64,000 bases of DNA from a virus (lineage: Duplodnaviria; Caudoviricetes), in the IMG/VR virus record IMGVR_UViG_3300008262_000001. One strand, given 5' to 3'. The first letter of the stretch is position 1. Each line of letters begins with the position of its first letter. Under the pieces are notes generated by a model, which made no database searches, was not told the origin of the DNA, and was given only the letters and a program-made list of their open reading frames with translations. This document shows, piece by piece, positions 9,168 to 63,834 of this stretch. A program made the translations under genes and the position numbers.

Positions 9168-9175
9168 GATATATA
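9168..9175 (+). promoter_or_regulatory. putative late promoter GATATATA
   Basis: 19 nt upstream of the ATG at 9195; back-to-back with the 9141 copy. Confidence 0.6.
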
Positions 9176-23006: not shown

Positions 23007-23014
23007 TATATATC
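23007..23014 (-). promoter_or_regulatory. putative late promoter GATATATA
   Basis: 13 nt upstream of the protease ATG at 22993. Confidence 0.6.
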
Positions 23015-31288: not shown

Positions 31289-34200
31289 TTAATTTATAGC
31301 AGGAACTGTCTGAAGTGTTCCGGCGTTGTCTACATAAATCAGGGTTGGACTTGCCCCAGTAGTTCCCATAATTTGTTTCGCGTAAGTCGAAGTATCGTAT
31401 ATAAAAGTTGCAGAAGCAAAATTGCTATTGCTTACAAAGTGAGATTTTAAATACAAAGCAGTTTTAGATACTAGTGGAACTCCTATTTTTGAATTTGATA
31501 CCCAATTCAACTCGGAGTCTTGAATTTTACAAAGGAAAGAAGATCCTGCCGCAGTTTTAATTGTAGAGTTTCTAATAATATCATCTCCTCCACTTCCGTA
31601 GTTTTTAAACACGCATTGATTAATTTCGCTTAAATAACCTGTGTCAATATTACCTTCAACTGCAATCGAGGTACAATCTTCTAGAACAACTGAGTTAAAT
31701 GAATCATAAGGATTTATTACACTTCCACTTACTCGCTTTAAAGTTATGTTATTTATGTAAAGTTGCGAACCAATATCTTCAACTTCACTGAAAACTATCG
31801 TATTACAATCTTCTAATTTAATATTATATGTGAAATTTGTAGGGCTATTATAAGTATTTCTTAAGTTTAAAGTATTTCCTTGCGATCCGCCATCGAACGA
31901 AATGTCAGAAATATTCATTCGTGCTAGCTCACCTATGATTATATTATTTGGTATGTATGATTCCTCATATGTCGTGGAAGTGAAAGGATTATTAAAATCT
32001 GTCGTGGTTCTCTTTTTTCCGAAAGAAATATTTCTAATAGAAGCAAAATCTGCAGGATCTATAGCAAGGAAATCTCTGAATCCTGATCCTCTATTCAGAG
32101 CAAAACTAGGAGTTCCGAACCCTAATATTACTGTGTAATTAATATCTTGAGTGAAAAAATAAAGGCTAAATCCATCGACAAGTTTAACCCATTTGTTATT
32201 CTCTTCTGGATTAATCCCGGATCCATCGGATTCTAAGCATCCAAACCACCCACCATTTCCTGCTCCTGCAGAAACCCTAACTACGTCACCTGCTGCGTAG
32301 GTAGTTGGAGGGGAAACTGAATCCCAAACAGGATAAGAAGTACTAGCTGGCCACCTTCTGAACTTAAAAGCCCTCCAATCGAAATAGCCTTCGATATTTC
32401 TGTTTGTATCTTTTCTATAAGTTATAGCTCCTCTAAATCCAGATACAATTGTAGAAGGTGAAGTAGAAGTAGTAAAAGCTTCATCTCCATAAAAGTTGCT
32501 TGGATCAGGATCCCAATAAATGATATCCTCAGGGTAATCCTCTGAAATCACTCTTTGGTCTATAGTTGTAGCTGATGTCGCAAGTACATAAATTTCTTCT
32601 GTCGAGCCAGTATTTGTGGCTGTACCTGCGGTTTCAAGGATATAATGGACTGTTCTAAAATCGTTTATTCTATACAGAGTTCCTGGAGTCATTGTGCCTC
32701 CTGAAAAGAGAGCATAAAATGCTGAATAAGTAAGAGATGTTACAGAAACAGTACCAGTGGCTCCAGTAGATCCAGTTGCTCCAGCTGTTCCCGTTGGTCC
32801 AGTAACACCTGTTCCAGTTGGTCCAGTAGCACCAGCTGTTCCAGTAGGTCCAGTAGCTCCTGCTGATCCTGTGGGACCAGTTACACCTGTTCCTGTTGGT
32901 CCAGTAGGTCCAACTGGACCTCCAGAAGGACCGGTAGCACCAGCTGTTCCAGTAGGTCCAGTAGGTCCCATTTGTCCTTGAAGGGCAAGTACTGATATAC
33001 CTGTGTCGCCCAGTGTTATATTAACAGTTCCAACCCCACCTGCATCATATTCAACTTTAACCCAATACTGATCCCCGGCTACTGCATCTATAATCCCTGT
33101 TACCACCACGGTTTCAAAAGGGGATTCAGAACCAGATGATACATCTTCAATAGTTTTGAAAGCCTTCAGGTTAGCAACTTCAACAGGAGAAGAAGTTGAC
33201 GACATGAGTTTTGTGGTTATCAAAGAAGATGCTGAGGCAGTAACATTGTCTAATCCTATTTTATAGCTAACAAAGTATTTTCCAGATACCAAAGTTTCGA
33301 AATAAGTTCCAGTTATTCCGGAAGGAACATAATTACCTACTGCAAAATATGATGAATCAATAAGATTAGTTGTATCAAATCTAGCTGGAATGTTACCTCC
33401 TGTACTTAATGATTGTGCATTAGCCACATTAGAAAGATCTAAATATGGCATAGTTCCAGGTGAACCTGCAGGGCCGGTTGCTCCTGTTACACCATCAGCC
33501 CCAGTTGGACCAGTAACTCCTGTGACACCAGCGGCTCCTGTTGGTCCAGTTGCACCAGTGGATCCATTTGTTCCAGTAGCACCGGTAGTGCCGGTAGCTC
33601 CTGTAGTTCCAGTAGCTCCTTTAATGTTGGTAACTAAACTCCAAACTGAAGAAGCTTTCGTGTAAACGTTATCAGTATCTAGATCTAAATACGTATCACC
33701 ATTACTTCCCAGTGAAGGCAAAGGAACTCCAGACCCAGTTCTAAAACTTTGACCAGATGCTCCAGTTGATCCTGCACTACCTGTAGATCCAGTTGGTCCA
33801 GTTACACCAGTTGCACCGGTAACTCCAGCACCAGTAGCACCAACTGATCCAGTTGGTCCAGTGGCACCTGTAGCACCATTATTTCCTGCACTTCCTTTTG
33901 CTCCCTGAGGTCCTGTTGCTCCAGTTGGGCCAGTTAATCCAGTTGGACCAGTAGCTCCATCAGTTCCTGTAGGACCAGTAGCTCCAGATCCTGTTGGACC
34001 TGTGGTTCCAGTTGGACCCGTTAAACCTATTGATCCTGTAGGTCCAGTTGGACCTTGAACACCTGTTGCTCCAGTTGGTCCTCCAGCAGCTCCAGTTGGA
34101 CCAGTTGGACCATTTCCCCCTGTTGCAGTTATCAAACTAACCCATTGGTCAATACCATCTGCACCGCCTGACATAGATCCACCAGTGACATTGGTTGGAA

Positions 34201-34918
34201 TTGCTCCTGCAAAAGTTATAGCATCACCGTTTGAGCTTGATCCTAATCCTGGGAGTGCTACAATTGTTACTGTGTTTGTGTTAGATTCTGCTAAGCAAGG
34301 ACCAGTTGTGTTGCTGGCTATCGCCAGAACAAGCTGCTGTGCTGTTATAGTGTTAGTAGTATTCCAACTGGTTGTACCTGCAGTTACTCCGTTATATAAA
34401 ACAGAAATGCTTTGTCCTGTGGTACCTGTAGATCCAATTGTAAATGAAAAAGTAGATCTTACTTCACCTACCTCAAAATAAGCTTCGTAATCATTACCAG
34501 TAAATCTGATTTGTCCAGCTACTCCTGGTAATATTGTATCGTCCGTATACGTTCTGTCAAGAACAAGTCTTAATCTTCCACCTTTGTTGGCATTACCTAC
34601 TATAACATTACCACCTGCATAAATGTCATTAACAGTGTTTAATCCACTAGAAAGAATATCACCATTTGCTCCGTTTAATTGAATCGAACTTGTTCCTTCT
34701 ATAGGAAGCCTAATCAAGTTGGATTTCAAACTCCCAACGTTTAATTTACCTGTAGGAAAGTTAAGAGATTTATCCTGGATTGATATTCCAAATGCTCTGT
34801 TAAGAAGAGTAAAACCTTCTTGCAGTTGTGCAAAATTAGCATTGGTGATCTGATTGTTTGCTCCAATTGTGTTGGAGGCAAGTAATTGCTTTATTGATAT
34901 CTGACTAAGCTCCTGCAT
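31289..34918 (-). CDS. collagen-like fibre protein with G-X-T repeats, a C1q/TNF-like module and a C-terminal receptor-binding-like region
   Basis: 1209 aa; two long GPT/GAT blocks flanking [11 protein letters not shown]...[11 protein letters not shown]; late promoter upstream. Confidence 0.75.
32750..32985 (-). repeat. collagen-like Gly-X-Thr repeat block 2
   Basis: [23 protein letters not shown]... in the translation. Confidence 0.9.
33460..34115 (-). repeat. collagen-like Gly-X-Thr repeat block 1, with one interruption
   Basis: [17 protein letters not shown]... interrupted by FRTGSGVP...GDTYLD...YTK...W. Confidence 0.9.
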
Positions 34919-34936: not shown

Positions 34937-34944
34937 TATATATC
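34937..34944 (-). promoter_or_regulatory. putative late promoter GATATATA
   Basis: 18 nt upstream of the fibre ATG at 34918. Confidence 0.6.
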
Positions 34945-37024: not shown

Positions 37025-37975
37025 CTATGCTTTATTTGCCATTTGTTGTAAAGTAAATATTAAGGCAAGCAAACTAACTACGGGATCAATAACAAGGTTC
37101 CTTTCAGCTTGGTATTTAGCAACTGTTATTATTATACCAGGAATCAAACCTGAGTTTTGTGGTTTTTTCTCTTGAATCCATCTTATAAAATCAGAGCTTA
37201 AAGATGTCATAACATCATCTGTTTTTGAAGAGTACTGCCCAACGATGTACTGGTAATTTTTTACAGGATCTGGTTTAGAAAAAATGAGCTCAAATACTTC
37301 TTCGTGGTCCCACAAAACCTCATTTATCTTTGATTCAGTTAGATCTTTAATCCCATCAATACTCCATCTTTGAATTGTGTTAAGTGCAGACCTCATGTCT
37401 GGAAAATACTTCTTCGTAAAAAGATCTAAATTCTTATCATCGTGCTCAATTTGAATTGCTGAAAGTATTTTGCTAACCCTTGACTTCCATTGATCTTGGA
37501 TTTCAACCTCTTCTTCTTTATTAATCGGATCAAAATCATAGAGTTCAAATCTTGATCTGATTGCTTCCGGAATTTTGTTTAGGTAGTTACAGGTGGCAAC
37601 GAATCTTGTACCTTTTGCATATTTTTCAATGGTTCCCCTTAAAGCCTTATAAAATTGTTCAGATGCACCATCAAACTCATCCAGGATTACAATCTTAGTC
37701 ATGTTCTCCCCGTCCATGATTGAGACAGTAGAACAGAAATCGTGAATTTTAGTTCTAATAGTCTCAACTGAACTTTCGTCAGAAACATTAATAAAAATGT
37801 GAGGATGGTTTTTCATCAGGATTTTTGCCATGCTGGTTTTTCCTGACCCTGGAGATCCCGATAAAAGCACATTTTGTTGTAAACCTCCTTCGAATGAATT
37901 CTTGATTCTATCCGGAAGGATCATGTGCTTTAATTCCTTCGGTCTGAGTTTCTCAGTTAATAATTCTTGTATCAT
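37025..37975 (-). CDS. gp44: clamp loader large subunit (T4 gp44/RFC AAA+)
   Basis: EKLRP, SGSPGSGKTS, ILDEFD, LRGTIE, CNY, IRSR, PDMRSALN. Confidence 0.92.
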   Translation of the reverse strand: MIQELLTEKLRPKELKHMILPDRIKNSFEGGLQQNVLLSGSPGSGKTSMAKILMKNHPHIFINVSDESSVETIRTKIHDFCSTVSIMDGENMTKIVILDEFDGASEQFYKALRGTIEKYAKGTRFVATCNYLNKIPEAIRSRFELYDFDPINKEEEVEIQDQWKSRVSKILSAIQIEHDDKNLDLFTKKYFPDMRSALNTIQRWSIDGIKDLTESKINEVLWDHEEVFELIFSKPDPVKNYQYIVGQYSSKTDDVMTSLSSDFIRWIQEKKPQNSGLIPGIIITVAKYQAERNLVIDPVVSLLALIFTLQQMANKA

Positions 37976-39294
37976 TTGCAATTTTCTGTAAAATCGTCTG
38001 CTAAAGTTTTATCGTTTCGTATTTCTATAAATCTTGGTAAGAATAATGACCAATTGTTGTTTTTGTCATTGATTATTACATTGTACTGAACTGAACATAT
38101 CTTACCGATGTGTTGATCTGGTTCAACACTCAATTCATGAAGATCGTTGTCAGTAAAACCAGATCCTATTTTTACCTTTAATATTCCGGTTTGATCCTCA
38201 CAAATAAACCCTCCTATAAATCCTTCTCTTTTTCCTTCTCCTGGGTACCAACCTTTAATTACTAAATCGCACTCGTTTACTTCTTTGAGTTTAATCCAAT
38301 TTTTTGATCTTTTACATTCGTAAACGTGATCTGGATTTTTAAGAATAACTCCTTCACCACCTTTACTAACTATATTTTTATAGTAACTATAGATGTCTTC
38401 TTTTTCTTTTGTAACAAATGATTCAGCCAATGTTACGGAATATGTTGGGGATTTTTCAAATACCCCTTCTAATGTTTGTCTCCTTATTTCAAAAGGAATT
38501 ACCCCCTTGCCTCTTTTCAGAGTTTCTGCATCTTCAAGATCAAAAACATTGAACATTAAATCATCACCTATAGAACTTGCAGGTTTTCCTTTGAGCATTT
38601 GGTTAACTTTTCCAGAAACACTTTTTCTATTTGAGTCTGTAAGTTCACCGTCTAAAAACCAATCGCCTTCTAATCCTGAATTTTTAATAAGAAGTTTACA
38701 TTCGTTTGCTATGACTGAAAGATATCCAGAAGAAATTTCATTGAAAGCCCTCGTGAAGAATTTAACTTCTTGTCCTGACACGAAAGCGATTATTCTAACT
38801 CCGTCATATTTTTCCTCACATATGATTTTCCCCCATTTGTTTATCTCTTTCTCATCGTCCTCTGCTAACATCAGACTAGGATCAGGTATAACTTCTCTTC
38901 CGAATGCCTTGTTGATTAATTTAGCTCCGATTCCTATATTCAATCTTTTGGTTAGGACCTTACCGAGCATTTTTCTTTCTTCAAAAGAAGCTTGAGTACA
39001 ATTAACTAGCTCAAAAGCCTCTTCTCGAAATTTGTCATTTGGTGCTGGTGCTTCAAAAAGTCTGCTTGTTAGATCTACAAACTTTTCGAATGCGTCATAT
39101 TGGACTAAATATGGACTTTCTTCTATGACTTCTAATTTGTGTAGTTTAGTGGTCAAAAAAGGATCTAAAGCAACTTTTAGCAAATACTCTAACTCTTTCG
39201 AGTAGTTGTTTTTAATGAGATCCTGTTTGATTTTTTGTGATCCCTCTCCAGTAGTAGATTCTATTTGTAGAAGGACAGAAAGTTCTTTTTGCAT
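37972..39294 (-). CDS. lig: ATP-dependent DNA ligase
   Basis: MLA, EEKYDGVR (motif I), FLDGEL, FNVFD, EGVILK, WIKLK, LFLPRF. Start taken at MQKEL. Confidence 0.95.
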   Translation of the reverse strand: MQKELSVLLQIESTTGEGSQKIKQDLIKNNYSKELEYLLKVALDPFLTTKLHKLEVIEESPYLVQYDAFEKFVDLTSRLFEAPAPNDKFREEAFELVNCTQASFEERKMLGKVLTKRLNIGIGAKLINKAFGREVIPDPSLMLAEDDEKEINKWGKIICEEKYDGVRIIAFVSGQEVKFFTRAFNEISSGYLSVIANECKLLIKNSGLEGDWFLDGELTDSNRKSVSGKVNQMLKGKPASSIGDDLMFNVFDLEDAETLKRGKGVIPFEIRRQTLEGVFEKSPTYSVTLAESFVTKEKEDIYSYYKNIVSKGGEGVILKNPDHVYECKRSKNWIKLKEVNECDLVIKGWYPGEGKREGFIGGFICEDQTGILKVKIGSGFTDNDLHELSVEPDQHIGKICSVQYNVIINDKNNNWSLFLPRFIEIRNDKTLADDFTENCK

Positions 39295-39416
39295 GTTATT
39301 TGTTTTAAGCAAATTTAAGAAAATTAGAAGAAGAAAAAAAAATTCCTACTATTTTACACCAAAAAACACAGGAGTTTCCAGTGAAAGGAATAATATGAAG
39401 AAAATGGAAACGTGGA

Positions 39417-41063
39417 TTATGCTTCTGCAGGTGGTGTTTCGGCAGCTGGAGTTTCTGTCGCAGGTGTTTCAGCAGCTGGAGTAGTTTCAGCTGGTGCTGC
39501 TCCCCCTTCTGTTGCTACACCAGAAGCTCCTTGACTTTTTTCAATGTAAGTTTTGTTCATCCTAATGTCATCATAGTTTAAATCCAAGAACCTTTCAATG
39601 AGGAAGTCTTGGTTGAAATATTGTACTTCTTCATCGTTTACATTTTCTTTGATTTCTCCCAATGATGTAACAAAATCGATTTTCTTAATAAGTTGCTCAA
39701 TTTCTCTGGATTCACCAAAAACATTGTCACTTTCGAACTTAACCCCTATTTGACTTCTAAATTCTGGGTCATTCTTAAGGCTTGGAAAATCTAAACACAT
39801 TTGAATCCAAAGGGGTTTAACAACAATCTCTTGGAATATAGACCTTAATCTTGTAACAAACTTTGAAAATCTTACTTCATCTCTTTCAGATCCATCTGCT
39901 GGGATTTTAAAAGGATTTCCAGCCCCAACCCCCCATCTTGCACTAAATCTATTGTAAGGTATTTTTGAATCCTGTCTGAGTTTGTTATAGAAATAAACAA
40001 CAGAATCCATAATGTTCAAGTTTGGCCCTTGAGCATTAATGGTTTCTACTTTAACACTATTCCCTGCTTGTTGAGGAAAAAGATAGTTTTTATAAAACTG
40101 TAAATCTGGTCTTCCATTAATAGCAAGTTCTCCTGATGTTGTATCGAGTTTAATATCCTCCTTGTAAACTGACATAAGCTCGCCAAGTGTCTCTTTTGCC
40201 TTTTGTGGTGACTTACTTCCGATAGGAACTGTCATTTTAATTCTAAACTGCGAGTTCATAACATTCCAGATAATCCTAGAATGCTCCATGATCTTTAACA
40301 AGTTATAAGATCTAATCAATCTTTCCGTATAAGATGTTCTTGATGCAGTGTTGGCCTTAGCATAAGATATGTAAATAACTTGGGCATCCAAAAGTCTTCT
40401 TTGTCTTGTAGTTTCACCATAGTATTGCCACCAGATAGATTCTCTTGTGCCATCGGGTCTTTTTTCAACTGCAGGGGTTAAACTTGTTGCATCGAGTTCT
40501 TTGAATCCCACAATTTCTTTACCATCGCTAGAGTATATGATCTCAAAAGCAAGAAACCCTTCAACTAAAAGTTGTCTGAAATATTGCCAACCAGTTAACC
40601 CATTGGCAAAATTATGAAGTACATAAAGTTTTCTGAAGTTCTTCCTAAGCGCTTGTACCACATCCTCCTTTAAATCCATATTAATCATGCTAGGATGACA
40701 AAAGAAGTTTTTCTCATCGTACACTATGGCTTCATCACAAATAGTGTCTAGAATGTATTCTATTTCAGCATTGAGGGCAAACGTTCTTAAGAAATCTCTT
40801 TTGTAAGGATAGTCTTTATCAAAATAAGCGATATATTTCCTATTAGATGTGTCTTGAGCAGCTATACTATAAATGAAATCTTCGTCATCCTCAGAAAAAC
40901 CGAATCTTTCCCTCATATTGGCTTCAGATATACCAATAGCCATAGAGTCTTGAATCACAAGATCTTTGTAATCCATTCCAAAGCTTCCTAACCCGCTGAG
41001 ATTTTTAATAATCCTCGATATGTTGGGATTGAATTTTCCTAAGTTATCTATAAATCCAGCCAT
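39417..41063 (-). CDS. gp20: portal protein paralogue B (T4 gp20-like)
   Basis: EIEYILDTICDEAIV, FRQLLVEG, LLKIMEHSRII, RDEVRFSKFVTRLR. Confidence 0.88.
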   Translation of the reverse strand: MAGFIDNLGKFNPNISRIIKNLSGLGSFGMDYKDLVIQDSMAIGISEANMRERFGFSEDDEDFIYSIAAQDTSNRKYIAYFDKDYPYKRDFLRTFALNAEIEYILDTICDEAIVYDEKNFFCHPSMINMDLKEDVVQALRKNFRKLYVLHNFANGLTGWQYFRQLLVEGFLAFEIIYSSDGKEIVGFKELDATSLTPAVEKRPDGTRESIWWQYYGETTRQRRLLDAQVIYISYAKANTASRTSYTERLIRSYNLLKIMEHSRIIWNVMNSQFRIKMTVPIGSKSPQKAKETLGELMSVYKEDIKLDTTSGELAINGRPDLQFYKNYLFPQQAGNSVKVETINAQGPNLNIMDSVVYFYNKLRQDSKIPYNRFSARWGVGAGNPFKIPADGSERDEVRFSKFVTRLRSIFQEIVVKPLWIQMCLDFPSLKNDPEFRSQIGVKFESDNVFGESREIEQLIKKIDFVTSLGEIKENVNDEEVQYFNQDFLIERFLDLNYDDIRMNKTYIEKSQGASGVATEGGAAPAETTPAAETPATETPAAETPPAEA

Positions 41064-41065
41064 AG

Positions 41066-42670
41066 TTATAATTTAAATTCTCCTGCAGCTTCTTCAGGTT
41101 TAGTTTCTTCCGTGCCCTCACCCTCTTTTCCTTCTGCTTCTTTTTTCTTCTCAGCAGCTTCTTTCTTAGCTTTTTCGTTATCAATTCTATCTTGAGCTGT
41201 CATTCCAAGATATCTGTCGAGCAAGAATTGTAAACTAAAATATGGTTTACCCTCTGAATTTTTCAAGCCCAATATTTTAATCACTTGATCTTTTCTTGCT
41301 GTCATAATTTCCATCTCCTTGGCTTCTTTAAACATGTTCTCTTTCACGTAATCAAGACCAAATTCGGATTTAATTATATAGTCATTTTTGAGATGCGGAA
41401 AGTCCAAACAAAATTGGACCCAGAGGGGTTTCATTAAGATTTCTTGGTAGATTGACCTTAGCCTGTTTATGAATTTACTAAATCTAATTTCTTCCATATC
41501 CAATCCATCTGCTCCAAAGGAAATAGTTCCTTCAGATCCGCTGTCTTCTCTTCCAAATCTTGAAACTGGAACTTTTGAATCTATCCTTAATTTGTTTGCA
41601 AAATATTGAAGAGCCTTTGTATCAGAAAATGCAGTGGCATCACCAGCTCCTGGTAAAGGCTGAATATCTGGAGTTCCATTAGGAGAAGATGGCATTAAAT
41701 AATTCTTGAAGAATTGTATTTTTGGCCTTCCGTCAACTGTTAACTCACCAGAGTCTGTATTTAATCTTATGTCCTCTTTGTAAATTGACATAAGTTCACC
41801 TAGAGTTTGTTTGGCTTTTTGTGGTGATTTTGTACCTATTGGTACAGTCATAGCCATACGATAAGAGGAATTCATCACGTTCCAAATTATCCTAGTGTGC
41901 TCCATGATTCTAAGCAAATTGAATGACCTTATTAATCTTTCAATGTAGCTTATTCTCGAAGCTGTACCACCACCCTTGGCGTAACTTATATAGATGATTT
42001 GCGAATCGTACAATTTTCTGGTTAAGGAAGGATTATCAGGATATTGAATCCAGATATCAACGAAAGATCCATCAGGCTGAGCTTCTACAGTTGGAACTAA
42101 CGATGCTGCATCTATTTCTTTGAATCCAACTATACTTTTTCCTTTCTTATCGAAAACTATTTCAAAAGCAAGATTTCCCTCTACTAAAAATTTGCGGAAT
42201 AAATGCCAAGCTGAGATATCCTGATTGAATCCAAATAGGTTATAAATTTCTTTATATCTTTTTTGGGTCTGAGCATAGATTTCTTTATCGACATCTTCAT
42301 GTTGCATGAAAGAGAAATAAGCCCAGAAATTCTTATCATCATAAACTATCGATTCATCACATACAGTATCTAATATGAATTCTATTTCCGGATTTTGTGC
42401 AAACCCTTGAACATAATGTCTTTTGTTCTTGAAATCCTTATCAAAATAAGCTATGTATTGTTTTGTTGTGGTATCTGCTTTTCTTATCCCGAAAAGGAAT
42501 GACTCATCCTTTATACCACCTTTCTTAAGAAATTGTGCCTCAGTAACACCAACTGCATAGGAATTTTTTACGACTAGATCTCCATAAGCCATTCCGAAAT
42601 TTCCCACTTTTTTAATATTCTCTACAATAGAGCTAAAAAAAGTTTTTTTGCCATCTGTAAATCCAGCCAT
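41066..42670 (-). CDS. gp20: portal protein paralogue A (T4 gp20-like)
   Basis: PEIEFILDTVCDESIV, FRKFLVEG, LLRIMEHTRII, EEIRFSKFINRLR. Confidence 0.88.
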   Translation of the reverse strand: MAGFTDGKKTFFSSIVENIKKVGNFGMAYGDLVVKNSYAVGVTEAQFLKKGGIKDESFLFGIRKADTTTKQYIAYFDKDFKNKRHYVQGFAQNPEIEFILDTVCDESIVYDDKNFWAYFSFMQHEDVDKEIYAQTQKRYKEIYNLFGFNQDISAWHLFRKFLVEGNLAFEIVFDKKGKSIVGFKEIDAASLVPTVEAQPDGSFVDIWIQYPDNPSLTRKLYDSQIIYISYAKGGGTASRISYIERLIRSFNLLRIMEHTRIIWNVMNSSYRMAMTVPIGTKSPQKAKQTLGELMSIYKEDIRLNTDSGELTVDGRPKIQFFKNYLMPSSPNGTPDIQPLPGAGDATAFSDTKALQYFANKLRIDSKVPVSRFGREDSGSEGTISFGADGLDMEEIRFSKFINRLRSIYQEILMKPLWVQFCLDFPHLKNDYIIKSEFGLDYVKENMFKEAKEMEIMTARKDQVIKILGLKNSEGKPYFSLQFLLDRYLGMTAQDRIDNEKAKKEAAEKKKEAEGKEGEGTEETKPEEAAGEFKL

Positions 42671-43263
42671 TATGCTAGTGAGTTTTTCTTATATATCTCT
42701 TCAATCGGGGTCCCTTCAATTGCCCTGGTATGCAGATATACTATTCTAGTCCAATCTTCGTAGGTAATTTCTTTTGCATCTCTTATTTTCTGTAAATCCC
42801 AAGCTCTATAAGAATTCTTCCAAGGAATTCCTTTCATGATTAAATCCATAGTTGGATAGTCACATTTTAATTGCACCTGTTCTAAAACATCACCTTTTTC
42901 TATCCTTTGAACATTGGTCGATATTTGGGATTCATAGACACTACTTATTCTACTGAAAAAAGCAAGTCTATATTGAGGAGGAATAAGAACTAAATCTAGC
43001 CCACTAAATACAAGTTTATCTTGGGAGTTAAAGAATCCCATAAAAAACAAAAGAGGTCTTCTGTTTACGAATTTCTTTGATTTATCGAGTTTATCGTTGT
43101 AATCAAAGGAATATATTTTACCAACTAGAAAATCAGAAATCTGTAAGGTTGATTTTTTGTCAAGATAATTTTCTCTCCAAAACAGAAATGAAGCATCGGA
43201 TAAGGAAGACAGACCAGAGACACTCAATTGATATTCTTCGAACCTTTCCTGGAAGGATTTCAT
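42670..43263 (-). CDS. gp2: DNA end protector-like protein (T4 gp2-like)
   Basis: GKIYSFDY...RPL...GLDL..IPP..R pattern; adjacent to gp4. Confidence 0.6.
   Translation of the reverse strand: MKSFQERFEEYQLSVSGLSSLSDASFLFWRENYLDKKSTLQISDFLVGKIYSFDYNDKLDKSKKFVNRRPLLFFMGFFNSQDKLVFSGLDLVLIPPQYRLAFFSRISSVYESQISTNVQRIEKGDVLEQVQLKCDYPTMDLIMKGIPWKNSYRAWDLQKIRDAKEITYEDWTRIVYLHTRAIEGTPIEEIYKKNSLA
42690..42697 (-). promoter_or_regulatory. putative late promoter GATATATA
   Basis: 19 nt upstream of the portal A ATG at 42670. Confidence 0.6.
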
Positions 43264-43754
43264 CGCATTATAAATTTCTCATTAATAGCTCCGAACTTGT
43301 AGCCTCTATCTTCTGCAAATCTTTTAGCAGCTTCAAACTTTGCCCTGTTAGTGATCCAGATCTTAAGCTTTTCATTATATGATCGAATCTTCTTCTCAGT
43401 TAAGTTTCCAGTTGGTTCTTTTGGTCTTTTATCTAAAGCATACTGATCTTCTGGTTTGATTTCTATTAACCAGTTTTCTAGAACATCACCTTTTTTTACC
43501 TGGATATAGTAATCTATGTTGTAATTGTGCTCTTTCTTATCGATTGGACTCCAGTACTTAACACAAATTGCTTCTGAACTCCATTTAGTAATATTTGGGT
43601 TCATATCGCAATACTGGCAGAATCTTCTTTCCCAAGAACTTCTGTAAATAATGTTGTTGATATCCCCTATATACTTTTTCGGATTTGTCGGAACATAAAG
43701 TCCTTGTTGATAGACTGAGTTTTTATTAGGTCTTAAGTTCTTTATGTTTTTCAT
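43260..43754 (-). CDS. gp4: head completion nuclease (T4 gp4-like, TnsA-type)
   Basis: PTNPKKYIGD, IIYRSSWERRF, KWSSE, IEIKP, NRAKFEAA. Confidence 0.9.
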   Translation of the reverse strand: MKNIKNLRPNKNSVYQQGLYVPTNPKKYIGDINNIIYRSSWERRFCQYCDMNPNITKWSSEAICVKYWSPIDKKEHNYNIDYYIQVKKGDVLENWLIEIKPEDQYALDKRPKEPTGNLTEKKIRSYNEKLKIWITNRAKFEAAKRFAEDRGYKFGAINEKFIMR

Positions 43755-43832: not shown

Positions 43833-44189
43833 TTAGATGTTGTAATTAGAGTTTTCCTCTTTTACTATTCTAGAAAATGGAATGGTCTTGATAGATTTTG
43901 GTGGATGTATCTTTTTCCAACCTTTCTTCATACCGTTGTGTGCAATCTGAGAAATGAAAGCAAAGGGATTATCTGATTTTGCTGGATCGTATCTATTCCA
44001 GTATTTTACTAAATCTTCTAATCCAGCAGATATGCAGTCTTCTCTATCTTCTGTGTCCCTATAAGAGTGAGTCTTAGACATTCCATTAACTATCAAAGTA
44101 AACATTTTTACAGTTTCTGATGTTAATTCCCCTTTCTCTTTGCTTTCTAATAAAGCTCTTTTAAGGTCTTTGTTTTTTACATATATCAT
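43833..44189 (-). CDS. gp55: late-transcription sigma factor (T4 gp55-like)
   Basis: YVKNKDL, EDCISAG, YDPAKSDNPFAFISQI. Confidence 0.75.
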   Translation of the reverse strand: MIYVKNKDLKRALLESKEKGELTSETVKMFTLIVNGMSKTHSYRDTEDREDCISAGLEDLVKYWNRYDPAKSDNPFAFISQIAHNGMKKGWKKIHPPKSIKTIPFSRIVKEENSNYNI

Positions 44190-44431
44190 GATTCGGGCAG
44201 GTTATTTTGGAGCTTAGCGATTTGATCTTCTAAATTTTTTCTTAATTGTTCCAAATTTTCCCTTGAATCTTTAATAATGTCTATTCCAATTTTACCATTT
44301 TCTATACTAGAAGTTTCTAGTTCTTGTATTTTATTCAGACAATCTTTCAAATCGTCCAAAATAAAACTGAGTCTGTTGCCTAATCCATGTTCTGGAGAGG
44401 CCTCAGACTCAGTTATTTTATTAGTGTTTAT
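44186..44431 (-). CDS. 81-codon coiled-coil reading frame with no ATG; candidate -1 frameshift extension of the 770-aa protein
   Basis: Reads INTNKITESEASPEHGLGNRLSFILDDLKDCLNKIQELE...QNNLPES*. It begins in the A10 run and its TGA overlaps the gp55 ATG. Confidence 0.6.
   Translation of the reverse strand: MNTNKITESEASPEHGLGNRLSFILDDLKDCLNKIQELETSSIENGKIGIDIIKDSRENLEQLRKNLEDQIAKLQNNLPES
44365..44414 (-). promoter_or_regulatory. long RNA hairpin (frameshift stimulator and/or terminator)
   Basis: Perfect 11-bp arms AACTGAGTCTG/CAGACTCAGTT with inner GCCT/AGGC and TCCA/TGGA pairs, followed by a U-rich tract. Confidence 0.7.
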
Positions 44432-46740
44432 TTTTTTTTTGCTTTTGGAGCTGAAGAAAGATTTGCTCTCTTTGTATCCTCTACAAATTTCTTACCGTTC
44501 TTCTTGTGATCTCCAGGAGCTGCTGCCAAATTAGCATCTTCTTCATCTTCCATAAACTTCTTAGGCTTTTCTGATTTAGCCTTTGGAGCTTTTTCAATAT
44601 GAGAATTCTTTTGGCTCTCTTTTAAAGCTAGGTTTTGCTTCTTCAAATCGTCAATGAATTGAGCTGCACTCTTAATTTTTGCTGAAGGAGCTGCTGCTAA
44701 ATTTGAATTAGTCAAATCCTGTATGAATTTTTTTCCAGCTGATTGTTTTGCATCAGGAGCAGCTGCCAAAGTTTTGTTCGAAATTGCTGCTTTACCAGTT
44801 TCTATTTTTTTATCTTTCGGAGCTGGAGCTGCGGCCAAATTTGAATTAGACTCATTATCAATAAATGTTGCTGCTGACTTTGGATCATTATCAGGAGCTT
44901 TAGCTAAATGCTTCTTATACATTGAATCGAACTCCTTGTCACCTTGTGACATTTTATTATCTCCAGGTGCTACAGATAAGCTTTGATCTGACTCACTTGT
45001 AAATTCAAGATCCATATCTGGAGTGTTGATGTCATACTGATCAACTTCATCTGCTAAATCTTCGACATCAGAGAAAAAGTATTCACCAGTTTTTCCTTCC
45101 TTAAAAAGAATTGTATAAGTCTTCGAACTTCCATCAACACCAATCACTTTACCTTTTACTCCATTTCTTTTAATTCTAACTTCAGTGTCTAATGGATATC
45201 CCATTTCTTCATTAACTGAAGAAATATCATTTGCCTTCTTCTCAAATCTTTCGATTTCAAGATTAACTTGGTTCCACTTATTTTTCAAAGAGGTAATTTC
45301 GTTTTCTATGCCTTCTTCCAAATTGATTAATTCTGGAGACTGGGCAATAAGAGGATTCTGTTGTTTTACATTTTCGATCTTTCTAAGTTCACCTTCTAAG
45401 ATTTCAATGTTTTTGACAATTTCTTTTTTGTCATTTTTCATAACACTTAAGAAAGCTTCCTCTCCGTTCAAAAACTCAGTCAAAGACTCTGATATATCAA
45501 ACTTGATGAAGTCTTTAATTATGTTAACTGCTTGAGTAGCATTTGACTCATAAATTTTATTGAGTTTCATTGCTGGATTAACAGTTTGAACATAAATTTT
45601 ATCCTTCAATTTGAAAACGTTTGCCTCAACACCTTCGTAAACTTTTGACTTAATTTTCTTTCCGAAATCGATATCTACAATTTCTTCTGAAGCTGAAGCT
45701 ACAAAGATTGCTCTGTTTATCCTGCTATTAGCACCTTCTAAAAGATTTCCAGTAGAAACGCTAACTGCTAAAGGTAAATCGCTCTCACTGATTTTCTTTC
45801 CGTCGTAATAAATTGTTTTCTCTTTGTTTTCAAAAACAATTTCAACTTTGTTTTTACCTATATTCAAGGTAATTTTGTTATTGTCTATGTTAATATCTCT
45901 ATCACCAACCATTACAGCTTTTTGTTGAAAATCAACAGGAACTTCCTCCATTTGACATTCAAATATTGTTTGTGTAGTCTCTTCTATTTTGAAGTATTTT
46001 CCACTAGAGAAGAATACCACTCCACTTTCAGTAACAAGCAAAGGTGAATATATGTTAGAAACCTCACAAATTGAATTGTCTGCTCCTACATAGAATTTAT
46101 TACTAACCTTATTTTCGTGAATTGATAAAAAGCTAACGAGATTTCTTACCATTGGATTAAATCCAAATCTTTTAAGTCCATGCAAAAGCGAATCTGTAGT
46201 TCTTTTCTCTGAAACCAACCAATTTTTCATAGTGGATGTTGCATCAGAAAATATGTCTCTGCCTGGAGCATTTTTAATTGACTCGTATGTCTTTATTACC
46301 TCTATTTCTCTTCTTCTATTTTCAAAAATGTGAGTTACGTTTTCTAAAACAGATGCAGCTGATCCTTCCCACGAAAAAGAGCTAAGTTCTTGAATAAATC
46401 CTTCTATCAAAAAAGCTTCTGGAATATTTTTAGAAATTAATAGACCTTCAAATTTCTCCAACATAATTTTACCTGCTGGAAGATCATAAAGACTAGAATT
46501 TTTAAGTGCAGATACTGTATTCAATAAACCAAAACTAAAGATTGTGTCCTCAGTTGCTTTGGGTGAAAAATTAGTATCTTTTGATTCTTTAATCATTTGC
46601 GAAGTTGATCCATTTAAAAATGAAGATGCAACAGGAGCTTTTTGAGCATCTAATCCAGCCCATTCTCTAAGAGAATCTGCAGCATTTTTGGAAGTCTCCA
46701 TATTTAATTTGTTAATTTCTGGATTAATATTTTTTTCCAT
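44428..46740 (-). CDS. large putative virion protein with a coiled coil, a KOW/SH3-like module and C-terminal 23-aa repeats
   Basis: 770 aa; EVRIKRNGVKGKVIGVD; NLAAAP repeats; late promoter upstream. Confidence 0.7.
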   Translation of the reverse strand: MEKNINPEINKLNMETSKNAADSLREWAGLDAQKAPVASSFLNGSTSQMIKESKDTNFSPKATEDTIFSFGLLNTVSALKNSSLYDLPAGKIMLEKFEGLLISKNIPEAFLIEGFIQELSSFSWEGSAASVLENVTHIFENRRREIEVIKTYESIKNAPGRDIFSDATSTMKNWLVSEKRTTDSLLHGLKRFGFNPMVRNLVSFLSIHENKVSNKFYVGADNSICEVSNIYSPLLVTESGVVFFSSGKYFKIEETTQTIFECQMEEVPVDFQQKAVMVGDRDINIDNNKITLNIGKNKVEIVFENKEKTIYYDGKKISESDLPLAVSVSTGNLLEGANSRINRAIFVASASEEIVDIDFGKKIKSKVYEGVEANVFKLKDKIYVQTVNPAMKLNKIYESNATQAVNIIKDFIKFDISESLTEFLNGEEAFLSVMKNDKKEIVKNIEILEGELRKIENVKQQNPLIAQSPELINLEEGIENEITSLKNKWNQVNLEIERFEKKANDISSVNEEMGYPLDTEVRIKRNGVKGKVIGVDGSSKTYTILFKEGKTGEYFFSDVEDLADEVDQYDINTPDMDLEFTSESDQSLSVAPGDNKMSQGDKEFDSMYKKHLAKAPDNDPKSAATFIDNESNSNLAAAPAPKDKKIETGKAAISNKTLAAAPDAKQSAGKKFIQDLTNSNLAAAPSAKIKSAAQFIDDLKKQNLALKESQKNSHIEKAPKAKSEKPKKFMEDEEDANLAAAPGDHKKNGKKFVEDTKRANLSSAPKAKKK
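44440..44990 (-). repeat. coding repeat of about 8 units, about 23 aa each (K.F.DD...NLAAAP)
   Basis: LSVAP, LAKAP, LAAAP x4 and LSSAP, mostly spaced 23 residues apart. Confidence 0.8.
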
Positions 46741-48036: not shown

Positions 48037-48609
<573 letters not shown>

Positions 48610-48610
48610 T

Positions 48611-49171
48611 TTAGTTTCCCTCCGAAATTATAAAATCTCCATCCTCAGATACTATGAATTCATCGCTTGGGTTATCATCTATATAAAATCCACCAGCTAA
48701 AATTACCTCAACATTAACCCTAACTGAATGTGGATTATAAAGAAGCATACCTCCGTCTGAAAAATATGGAGATTCAATATCGCTACCATTAGGATCTAAA
48801 TCCCATGCTCTGTCCACAAAAGCAGGTGAATAATTACTCGGATTTCCTGTTAAGATAGTAAGATTCGCCATCGGAAGATAGTTTCCTTGGTAAATTATAT
48901 TGATAAATCTACTAGCCACTGGAAGTGTACTTGGATAAGAGGCCTTTATCATGATAAATCCGAGTTGTCCTAAACCCTCTGCATTTAGAATAAGTGAGGA
49001 GTTCGGATAGACGCATCCACTAAAAGATGAAAAGTTGTTAATTGTGATATCTGTATCACAAAAACTTATTTCTCTTGCCACAGTTGTTCCTCTTACTACT
49101 TGAAGATTGCATCTTTGAAAGATAGCACCTTCAAATTCTATAGTGTTACATACTTGTGGAGGTGTAGCCAT
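48611..49171 (-). CDS. putative virion protein, paralogue of 49171..49752
   Basis: Shares CNL...CD, IKA.Y, Y.GN..PM..L..LTG and GG...NP blocks with its neighbour. Confidence 0.6.
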
Positions 49172-49752
49172 TAGTTAAAAATAAATATTTCAAGCTGGAC
49201 ATCACTTGTTCCAGGATTACTAAAAAGAATACCTCCGAAAGTGGGGTCTGGAGAAGAAATAGGAGGATAAATTGCAGGAGAAAAAACAGGACTTGGAGGG
49301 TTATTGGAATAGTAACTTAAATCCCATCCTTGCCAAGGAATCTCGGGCTCAGTTCTTCCTGTAAGAACCATTAATGAATTCATAGGGTAGATATTCCCCT
49401 TGTATTCCCAATAGAGATATCGGTCTTCTGAATGCACATCCTGGTGGTACTTGGCTTTGATCACAATCATTTGTACTTCACCTTGTGCTTGGCCAACTTC
49501 AGGAGCTGTGAGAGTGTATGAGTATCCAGCAGGTAGATTTATATTTCTTTTCGCAGATCCACCACATCCTCCCAGTTCTGAACTTCCTAGTCCTTCCAAT
49601 TTAAAATCACATAAGGAAGTTCTAGATAAAACATTAACTCCCTCTTTTATCTCTAAGTTACATGACTGAAAAACTACTTTTCTATAAACACCAGGATTGC
49701 AATCAAGATACTTGATGTATTGCGAGTCTGTTGTGTATATTGGTTTTATCAT
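49171..49752 (-). CDS. putative virion protein, paralogue of 48611..49171
   Basis: Same conserved blocks as its neighbour. Confidence 0.6.
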   Translation of the reverse strand: MIKPIYTTDSQYIKYLDCNPGVYRKVVFQSCNLEIKEGVNVLSRTSLCDFKLEGLGSSELGGCGGSAKRNINLPAGYSYTLTAPEVGQAQGEVQMIVIKAKYHQDVHSEDRYLYWEYKGNIYPMNSLMVLTGRTEPEIPWQGWDLSYYSNNPPSPVFSPAIYPPISSPDPTFGGILFSNPGTSDVQLEIFIFN

Positions 49753-57453: not shown

Positions 57454-58032
57454 TTAGTTAAAAAGATCCTCGAAGTAATCAGCTCTAAAGGAAAGTGCCA
57501 CTTTGTAAGGGGTAGTTCCGTTAGTGTAATCAAGGTCGAGCGATTTGATCTGGTCAACAGGGAAACAGTTTACGAGCTTAACTCTTCTGAAAACATCACC
57601 TTGCTTATTAAATATAGAAATAAGAATATAAGTGTCTCCAGCATAAACAGACTTAATACCAGTTGCACCTGTTAATGGGTTGTAAACTAGGTCAGACCAT
57701 TGTCTTAAAGTCTTGAAAACATAATTGCTATTATTGTCATCAAGGTTTGTTTCAAAATCAATTCTGACTTTTACACCAGTATCATCTACTGCTCCAGCAG
57801 CATATCTTCTTCTTGAAAACTTATATCTTTGTTCAGCAACTCCTGGGTTCTTATCAACTGCAAGACCAGAAATTGAAAGCACGTTCTCAACAAGTAATGT
57901 TCTTCCTCCGTTTCCTAAAGGATTAGAAACACCTACTGGTGGCTGTATTATAACCTCAAACTGGTTTAAGTAAACTGGTTCATAAAGTTGTACAGCTGCT
58001 TTAGATGAACTGAAATGTGGTAATCCTGCCAT
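57454..58032 (-). CDS. gp19: tail tube protein paralogue B (T4 gp19-like)
   Basis: EPVYLNQFEV, LRQWSDLVYNP, FNKQGDVFRR, CFP; downstream of the sheath. Confidence 0.75.
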   Translation of the reverse strand: MAGLPHFSSSKAAVQLYEPVYLNQFEVIIQPPVGVSNPLGNGGRTLLVENVLSISGLAVDKNPGVAEQRYKFSRRRYAAGAVDDTGVKVRIDFETNLDDNNSNYVFKTLRQWSDLVYNPLTGATGIKSVYAGDTYILISIFNKQGDVFRRVKLVNCFPVDQIKSLDLDYTNGTTPYKVALSFRADYFEDLFN

Positions 58033-58042
58033 TTTCTTCTAA

Positions 58043-58615
58043 TTATATAAATGTATCTTCGAAATAATCTACTGCCCATGTCACGTTGATCTTATAAATA
58101 CCTGTTTGGGTATAGTTAAGAGCCATTTCGTTAATTGGTGTAATAGGGAAGCAATCTTTCAAATTAATTCTTCTGAACACGTCACCAGCTTTATTGAAAA
58201 CACTGATTAAAATGTTACCTGAATAATTTGTCTTAAGTCCCATAGCACCAGTTATAGGATTGTAAACTAAATCTGACCACTGGCGAAGTATCTTGAACAC
58301 ATACATAGAATTATTGTCATCAAGGTTAATCTCGAATTCAATATCTACGTCTAAACCAGTTCTTTGAGGAGCTGCTCCAGAATAATATCTCTTTGCAAAT
58401 TTGAATTGCTGAGTTATTTCTCCTGGGTTCTGATCTACCTGTAAACCAGATACTCTTGTAACTTGCTCTAATAAAATATTTCCACTTCCTGGATTTCCTT
58501 GTGGAGCAGCTACACCAGTTGGAGGAGATATTAATACCTCAAACTGGTTCAGGAAAACTGGTTCGTATTTGTTAATAGAAGCCTTCGAACTGGTATAATG
58601 TGGTAAACCTGCCAT
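58043..58615 (-). CDS. gp19: tail tube protein paralogue A (T4 gp19-like)
   Basis: EPVFLNQFEV, LRQWSDLVYNP, FNKAGDVFRR, CFP. Confidence 0.75.
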   Translation of the reverse strand: MAGLPHYTSSKASINKYEPVFLNQFEVLISPPTGVAAPQGNPGSGNILLEQVTRVSGLQVDQNPGEITQQFKFAKRYYSGAAPQRTGLDVDIEFEINLDDNNSMYVFKILRQWSDLVYNPITGAMGLKTNYSGNILISVFNKAGDVFRRINLKDCFPITPINEMALNYTQTGIYKINVTWAVDYFEDTFI

Positions 58616-58790: not shown

Positions 58791-60383
58791 ATGGAACCAG
58801 ATTTATTTTCAGAATACACAGCTATAAAAAAAGGGACAAAAAAAGCAAACGCTTTTTCTAAATTGATTAAAAACAATGAGGAACTAAAAAAAGAACTGTA
58901 TTCCAAATCCCTTGACATATCAGAGCTTTATTCTAATCCGAGTGAAGTACAAAGATTGAAATTTGTATTTGAGGACAAAAAAATCAAATTTTGTGAATGT
59001 GGTAAACCAAGATCTTGGAGAAACTTCAAAAAGGGCTATAATAAGACATGCGGGGATAAAGAATGCGTTTCAAGGGAAAACAATAGGTCAGTTAAAGAAT
59101 TTTACCAAAATAAATACGGAGTAGACCATTTGTTTCAAACTGAAACATTTAAGACAAAATTAAAGGATACTTTCATATCAAAGTTTGGAGTTGATAACCC
59201 TGGAAAGAACGAGGAGGTAAAAAATAAGATCAAAAAAACAAATTTGGAAAAATTTGGAGAAACAAGCTGGTTAAAAGTAGAAGAAAATAAAAAAAGAATC
59301 TCTGAAAGTATTATAGAAAATAATTCTAAAGATAGAATCTCTAAAATTGAAAAATTTAATATACCAATAGAAATAAAAGATTTTAACACTAAAGAAGTTA
59401 AAATACAATGTAATATTTGCAGCAATTCTTCAGTCTCATCAACTTCATACTTTAATAAGAAAATATCAGCTGGACAAAATCCGTGCTTAAAATGCAGTCC
59501 CCCTCTTTATTCTGAATCTAGAGCAGAAAATGAACTTAGTGAGTACCTCAAAGAAATATACGCTTTGGAAATAATAACTCACGATAGAAAAATATGCGAA
59601 GGTAAGGAAATTGATTTCTTTTTACCTGAATTAAATGTAGGTTTTGAATTCCATGGGATCTGGTGGCATAGTGAGATCTTTAAGGGGAAAAATGGAAATC
59701 TTAATAAGAAAAATATTATTGAGAATAAGGGGATAAAAATTTACCACATTTGGGAGGACAATTGGCTCCTAAAAAAAGAAATCATAAAAAGCAGAATCTT
59801 GAATGCTTTAGGTCTTTGTAAAAAAATATATGCAAGAAAATGTAATATCCTAAAAATTACTGCCAGAGAAGAAAAGGATTTTCTTGATACTAATCACATA
59901 CAAGGATATGTTCCATCACGAATCAAGCTGGGACTTTATTATGATTCAGAATTAGTCTCAATTATGACTTTTGGGGCAAAAAGGAAATCTTTGGGTCAAA
60001 GATCAAAAGAGGGAGAATATGAGTTATTAAGATTCTGTAATAAATTAGGAACGACCGTAGTAGGAGGTGCATCTAAACTTTTCAATAAATTTATCAAAGA
60101 ATTTGATCCGGATCTAGTTATTTCTTATCAAGACAATTCTTGGTATACTGGAAATCTCTACCAAAATATAGGATTTGATTTTATATCTAAAAGCAAGCCT
60201 AATTACTATTGGTGTAAGAGTAATATTAGATACCATAGATTCAATTTCAGAAAAGATAAATTAATTAAAGACGGTTTCGATAGAACTAAAACTGAGGATA
60301 TTATTATGACTGAGAGAGGTTATTATAAATTATGGGATTTTGGTAATTTGAAATGGGAATACAAAAAAAAAGGCTTAGATTAA
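58791..60383 (+). mobile_element. free-standing Hef-like homing endonuclease: Zn ribbons, PD-(D/E)XK nuclease and a Mom-like GNAT domain
   Basis: CECG...CGDKEC, [YF]GV repeats, CNIC..CLKC, EIDFFLP...FEFHGIWWHS, IWEDNW, then HIQG..LGLY...ELLRFC..GGASKL..ISYQD..GNLYQNIGF. Antisense between the sheath and tube genes. Confidence 0.75.
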
Positions 60384-63826: not shown

Positions 63827-63834
63827 TATATATC
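63827..63834 (-). promoter_or_regulatory. putative late promoter GATATATA; second copy at 63870-63877
   Basis: 18 nt upstream of the sheath ATG at 63808. Confidence 0.6.

Follow-up and report, generated by a model that had tools for sequence, protein, structure and literature searches.

A tandem pair of diverged T4-type portal genes retained across a clade of freshwater jumbo myophages

The 64,000-nucleotide (nt) stretch of Caudoviricetes DNA in IMG/VR record IMGVR_UViG_3300008262_000001, referred to below as the window, carries on its minus strand two adjacent genes for portal proteins of the T4 gp20 family, whose products we name PorA and PorB. DNA passes into and out of the head through the portal, a ring that is the most conserved part of the machinery of tailed phages and herpesviruses. 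In the textbook portal the twelve subunits are identical, and this is assumed in models of head nucleation, of the symmetry mismatch with the capsid and the packaging motor, and of DNA gating. To our knowledge, each tailed phage that has been studied has one portal gene, whose product forms a homododecamer. We describe the two genes and their relatives, trace their origin, and weigh what a phage lineage may build from two portal subunits.

Two portal genes side by side

The layout of the locus is given in Table 1. PorA and PorB both start with MAGF and are aligned by BLASTP with 247/503 identities (49%, E 7e-174); their C-terminal tails are acidic and of low complexity, and differ between the copies. 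The genes are tightly packed on their upstream side as well. The stop codon of the gp2-like gene overlaps the PorA start (TAATG), a junction found in most relatives, and the gp4-like and gp2-like genes overlap by 4 nt (ATGA junction).

Table 1. Features of the portal locus, with positions in the window
Feature	Coordinates	Strand	Basis
PorB, downstream portal paralogue, 548 amino acids (aa), T4 gp20 family	39417..41063	-	Open reading frame; PF07230; AlphaFold2 model; tree
Spacer from PorA stop (TAA) to PorB ATG, 2 nt, reading TAA-ct-ATG	41064..41065	-	Sequence
PorA, upstream portal paralogue, 534 aa, T4 gp20 family	41066..42670	-	Open reading frame; PF07230; AlphaFold2 model; tree
Late-promoter-like motif GATATATA, within the 3′ end of the gp2-like gene and 19 nt upstream of the PorA ATG	42690..42697	-	Enrichment
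gp2-like DNA end protector gene	42670..43263	-	phrog_429, E 1.2e-8; PF26869 Phage_T4_gp2 on orthologues
gp4-like head-completion nuclease gene	43260..43754	-	PF08722, E 9.3e-14; phrog_218 'head closure', E 2.1e-44
gp55-like late sigma factor gene	43833..44189	-	phrog_234 'late sigma transcription factor', E 1.2e-15; PF04542, E 2.7e-6

Both proteins match the Pfam family PF07230 (Portal_T4) over profile positions 9-432/433, PorA with 209.7 bits and PorB with 204.9 bits, where the curated cut-off is 22.9 bits. Both also match phrog_213, annotated 'portal protein'. AlphaFold2 models were built from alignments of 73 (PorA) and 71 (PorB) sequences; they have a mean predicted local distance difference test score of 74.6 for PorA and 74.8 for PorB, and their secondary-structure elements come in identical order. 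The first 13 Foldseek matches of each model are all chains of T4 gp20 (E 1e-19 to 1e-15, with a template modelling (TM) score on the target of 0.51-0.73). The best PDB match of both is chain 6uzc_E, at E 1.1e-19 and a TM score of up to 0.73 for PorA, and at E 7.6e-20 and up to 0.70 for PorB.

PorA and PorB therefore share family and fold with T4 gp20 (PF07230; PDB 3JA7, 6UZC, 9MKB, 9LU7), so that wing, stem, clip, tunnel loop and crown can be aligned, although sequence identity to the T4 protein is only 15-19%. Residues that mark the family are kept in both copies. Among 41 single-copy relatives, 30 alignment columns are at least 90% conserved, and PorA retains 28 of these and PorB 29. The tip of the clip, aligned to T4 residues N291-K296, reads GTKSPQKA in PorA and GSKSPQKA in PorB; in T4 gp20 this tip contacts the terminase gp17 (PMC4493910).

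Origin, selection and divergence of the two copies

The arrangement extends well beyond the window. Scanning IMG/VR with PorA gave 80 loci, and tblastn with both proteins found PorA followed by PorB at each of these loci that extends far enough downstream. By gene calling, the order is A then B in 66/66 related contigs that hold both genes complete. A distant lineage from a protein collection (L097/L098, 62% identity) has a portal pair of 587 + 595 aa in an equal context, so that strict co-retention of the two genes held in the 66 complete loci and in this lineage as well. Independent assemblies from JGI, ENA, Logan and IMG/VR all contain the pair.

In 65 of the 66 loci the spacer between the genes is 2-12 nt long and PorA ends in TAA. 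The exception, L034 (L034:1542-3170), has a single in-frame TAG at PorA codon 328, with the rest of the gene intact to the normal stop; an error in sequencing, a variant carried by a minority of the population or suppression of the stop may account for this TAG. The spacer length is a multiple of three, which places PorB in frame with PorA behind one TAA, in 47/65 loci, a set of related loci for which one third would be expected. Programmed read-through from PorA into PorB was considered as a conserved feature and rejected, the genes being out of frame in 18/65 loci, this window included. Single open frames of 1093 and 1104 aa that appeared to span both genes in two relatives were likewise discarded, since translation shows a TAA between the genes.

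In a maximum-likelihood tree all A copies form one clade (support 100/99) and all B copies another (100/99). These are sister clades (99/93) that split internally into the same three subclades, and their stem branches have almost the same length (0.18 and 0.20). The duplicated clade as a whole branches as one group inside relatives with a single portal gene. These single-portal relatives (the lineages P0122, P0123 and P0131, the metagenomic huge phage LR756500, and the Lak megaphages) have portals of the same subfamily at 37-48% identity. The adjoining lineages P0122, P0123 and P0131 all show the order gp4-like, gp2-like, portal, and LR756500 gives one portal match only. An apparent second portal in the 735-kb huge phage LR756501 was rejected, its second PF07230 match being only a 101-aa fragment at 22 bits.

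From the sister clades with congruent subclades, and from the single-portal lineages outside them, it follows that PorA and PorB arose by one old tandem duplication in a common ancestor of these freshwater jumbo myophages, after which both copies diverged together. Orthologues within the duplicated clade have since diverged to 54-56% identity. The gene directly after PorB encodes an ATP-dependent DNA ligase (37972-39312, minus strand); in L096, a single-portal relative, a clamp-loader gene follows the portal instead, and the ligase may have been inserted near the time of the portal duplication.

Both copies are under strong purifying selection. The ratio of non-synonymous to synonymous substitution rates (dN/dS), calculated by the Nei-Gojobori method for orthologue pairs with 0.05 < dS < 1.5, has a median of 0.030 for PorA (117 pairs) and 0.038 for PorB (98 pairs), with a maximum of 0.13. 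A preliminary description of the window had reported a 534-aa and a 548-aa gp20-like gene 2 nt apart, both starting MAGF, with divergent acidic tails, and had taken them for an unusual pair of intact portal paralogues of which neither had decayed. Open reading frames, BLASTP, profile searches and the tail sequences agree with this account, and the full-length PF07230 matches, the gp20 fold of the models, the retained family columns and the low dN/dS confirm that both genes are intact. The same description had named relaxed selection on one copy as the observation that would speak against it; what we find is comparable constraint on both, together with retention of both across the clade.

The two copies have not diverged evenly along their length. 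Domain limits of T4 gp20 (PMC4493910) were transferred through HMMER alignments, and A-to-B identity was averaged over comparisons made within each genome. On these alignments PorA and PorB are most alike in the stem and the clip (stem helix a5, 0.84; stem helix a7, 0.63; clip, 0.61). Intermediate values are found in the second wing segment (0.58), the first wing segment (0.49) and the N-terminal 80 residues (0.45). Divergence is greatest in the parts predicted to face the DNA, namely the channel loop (0.24), the crown (0.30) and the tunnel loop (0.34); the C-terminal tail has an identity of 0.25. The channel loop is well conserved within each paralogue across the main clade (identities 0.83 and 0.88), which marks the loops as specific to each paralogue and not as freely varying segments.

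The tunnel loops also differ in charge. In the main clade (43 genome pairs) their net charge is -2 in A and +3 in B (+2 in two loop variants), and in the L097 lineage it is about -2 in A and +2 in B. In the T4 portal, neighbouring tunnel loops touch (PMC4493910). At the C-terminus, many family members have a flexible acidic tail that ends in a hydrophobic tip; this tip, EF[KT]L, is mostly retained in PorA and mostly lost in PorB.

Transcription unit and genome setting

The octamer GATATATA occurs 17 times in the window where 3.05 copies are expected (~5.6-fold enrichment), and 0/100 shuffles reach that number. The usual place of a copy is 10-60 nt upstream of a gene start on the same strand, and the genes so preceded include those for the prohead protease, the sheath and the fibres. 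Examples other than the one before PorA are at 23007-23014(-), 34937-34944(-), 63827-63834(-) and 9168-9175(+). With a gp55-like sigma factor encoded close by, we read GATATATA as the late-promoter element of this phage, and it is probably recognized by that factor. It differs from the T4 late promoter TATAAATA, which is not enriched in the window (7 copies against 6.4 expected) and has no copy near the portal pair.

The GATATATA site before PorA is kept in relatives. Between this site and PorB there is no further copy, and no terminator-like hairpin was found on the minus strand between PorA and PorB. The single site, the tight spacing and the lack of a terminator point to one bicistronic late message, from which PorA and PorB are probably made together. 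The DNA of the window recurs in 20 listed sequencing runs, all of them DNA runs of lake, freshwater or 'fungus' metagenomes and none of them RNA.

Downstream of the portal pair lie genes for the DNA ligase, a clamp-loader subunit, a nucleotide kinase and an RNase H-like exonuclease. The window further encodes a T4-type major head protein, a prohead protease, collagen-like fibre proteins and a long tail sheath, and the phage is a myophage distantly related to T4. It has in common with T4 the neighbouring head-completion genes (gp2, gp4) and the types of capsid protein, prohead protease and sheath; T4, however, has one portal gene, whose product forms a homododecamer, where this clade has two 49%-identical copies side by side throughout. 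The nearest deposited phages are metagenomic huge phages (LR756500, 42% identity) and the Lak megaphages (37%), followed by Sphingomonas phage PAU and jumbo phages of Tenacibaculum and Chryseobacterium. These relatives make Bacteroidota plausible as hosts. For related contigs of 116-154 kb the estimated completeness is 42-66%, which implies a jumbo genome of roughly 250-300 kb. No cultured member of the two-portal clade was found among the database matches.

Several other features of the window are recorded here. Two further sets of adjacent paralogues are present on the minus strand. The first, at 57454-58032(-) and 58043-58615(-), encodes proteins of 192 + 190 aa with 58% identity, each gene lying behind a TATATAAT-like site. 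The second, at 48611-49171(-) and 49171-49752(-), consists of abutting genes for proteins of 186 + 193 aa (28% identity, E 2e-16) that have no PHROG match; the distant relative L097 carries the same two-gene pair, at 186 + 186 aa. Two collagen-like repeat fibre proteins, of 1209 aa (31289-34918(-)) and 190 aa (48037-48609(-)), have repeat units in common, and the larger gene accounts for a local rise in G+C to 0.44 at 32-34 kb. The plus strand carries a 530-aa HNH/homing-endonuclease-like gene (58791-60383(+)) immediately ahead of the tail sheath gene; a GATATATA site of its own lies upstream of it. Finally, a 770-aa protein without a family match (44428-46740(-)) has a C-terminal half made of repeated units that end in NLAAAP-like motifs.

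Possible assemblies of PorA and PorB

Tailed-phage heads nucleate on one portal ring at one vertex. Two compatible subunits produced together, which share a framework of stem, clip and wing and both retain the tip for terminase contact, would have a single obvious place to go. The clade probably builds either a mixed portal ring or two kinds of portal. Between these we lean to the former, and give about an even chance to the proposal that PorA and PorB co-assemble into a single hetero-oligomeric dodecameric ring at one portal vertex, the copies plausibly alternating. Co-assembly, its stoichiometry and any gain in function are what we infer here. Following the tandem duplication in the ancestral phage, a single bicistronic message would yield both proteins late in infection, and these would join in one twelve-membered ring. 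The shared stem and clip would preserve the ring contacts and the docking site for the terminase and the neck. Two kinds of lining for the DNA channel would come from the parts specific to each paralogue (channel loop, tunnel loop, crown and C-terminal tip), and these diverged parts, facing the DNA and the head interior, would carry a division of labour.

The near-equal stem branches of the A and B clades and their congruent subclades indicate symmetric divergence, which fits co-dependence of the copies better than drift of one of them to a new job. Strict co-retention of the pair, purifying selection on both copies, the close coupling of the genes and the opposite tunnel-loop charges of the main clade also speak for the mixed ring. 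The single promoter-like site, the spacing of 2-12 nt and the clip tip kept in both proteins lean toward a mixed ring or divided roles at one vertex, and make a second vertex, or a function away from the portal, less likely. The preliminary description had offered a hetero-oligomeric portal, a second special vertex and divided roles as options; the evidence leans to the first and the last of these, both at one vertex, and the second vertex is disfavoured.

Known systems offer partial parallels. A precedent is the T4 major capsid protein gp23 with its vertex paralogue gp24, a duplicated head protein of which the one copy is placed in the hexamers and the other in the pentamers of the same capsid. 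A portal ring, unlike that lattice, has one position only, and so its two copies must share a ring or alternate between particles. We know of no viral portal that is a heteromer. Outside viruses, the 20S proteasome and the Lsm rings (PMC7480870) exemplify the route proposed here, in which the gene of a homomeric ring is duplicated and the copies are retained, co-expressed and built into a mixed ring; the heteromers have been demonstrated experimentally in those cases, and that of PorA and PorB is deduced from the genes.

Co-folding of PorA 60-510 with PorB 65-515 from custom alignments scored 0.16, where the mark was 0.32, and counts neither way. Several points weigh against co-assembly. Only 16 columns are conserved clade-wide within each paralogue yet differ between A and B, and most of the changes are conservative, so that there is no clear sign of a rebuilt interface. 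The tunnel-loop charge contrast is missing in the most divergent subclade (+1/+2), and among single-copy relatives the charge of this loop ranges from -2 to +3. A weak search among proteins of 936-2670 aa found no fused A-B protein. Also, when E. coli homomers are duplicated, the copies stay apart as homomers of their own in about 50-55% of cases (PMC7480870), and so the prior for a heteromer is not high.

One candidate for such a fusion, P0257 (1059 aa), was rejected as a portal split by an intein in an unrelated T4-like phage. Its intein-interrupted gene (PF07230, PF14890, PF07230) is found at L094:5001-8180 and L095:4031-7210.

The foremost alternative is that the two proteins form separate homododecamers with divided roles, so that heads carry either an A ring or a B ring (two classes of virion), or one ring initiates the head and the other is placed in series with it. 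The pattern of divergence would suit this well, being concentrated in the DNA-facing parts with a channel loop that is conserved within each paralogue, and so would the hydrophobic tip that mostly persists in PorA and has mostly gone from PorB; the frequency with which E. coli homomers stay apart after duplication counts in its favour too. Two separately used rings might, however, be expected to be separately regulated, and the shared promoter-like site and short spacer give no sign of this. The stem and clip carry many of the subunit contacts in solved portal rings, and since these are the most similar parts of PorA and PorB, co-expressed subunits would be expected to mix. Nor do we know of any tailed phage with two portal rings or two portal vertices. 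We regard two separate rings as possible but less probable than one mixed ring.

It is improbable that one paralogue is the virion portal and the other a helper outside the virion, such as an assembly initiator, a chaperone ring or a regulator of terminase docking. The constant retention of the pair would fit such a split into distinct essential tasks, and the paralogue-specific loops, crown and C-terminal tip could reflect them. Against this, both copies keep nearly all of the family-conserved columns, including the N-terminal MAGF block, the wing, the tunnel-loop anchors and the clip tip that would contact the terminase. A copy with a changed job usually shows faster or asymmetric change, but here dN/dS and stem branch lengths are nearly equal between the copies.

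A redundant or dosage duplicate with one copy being lost, or an assembly artefact, is refuted: the TAG of L034 might suggest decay, but it lies in an otherwise intact gene, and the copies recur in independent assemblies, are similarly constrained, and at 49% identity are older than a clade whose orthologues differ as much as stated above.

Returning to the mixed ring, we also consider a stricter form of it, an obligate and ordered A6B6 portal in which the subunits alternate, imposing a six-fold pattern on the twelve-fold ring, and in which alternating acidic and basic tunnel loops act as a valve. This form is doubtful, and we put it forward only tentatively.

The family of PorA and PorB is thus known, but we found no published description of a two-gene arrangement such as this clade keeps throughout. 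Full-text literature searches returned no paper on phage portal paralogues, duplicated portal genes or heteromeric portals, and a genomic survey of jumbo phages mentions only a single gp20 orthologue (PMC7824862).

If PorA and PorB do share one ring, this would be a portal architecture of a new kind, and viruses would offer a clear case of a ring that passed from homomeric to heteromeric through gene duplication. No virus is known to have a hetero-oligomeric portal, and an A6B6 ring, if true, would be the first. Because portal proteins produced in E. coli usually assemble into rings, the finding can be tested directly without growing the phage. A clade with two selected and diverged portal subunits is a natural experiment on the splitting of portal functions, for which the channel loop, the tunnel loop and the crown are the candidate parts.

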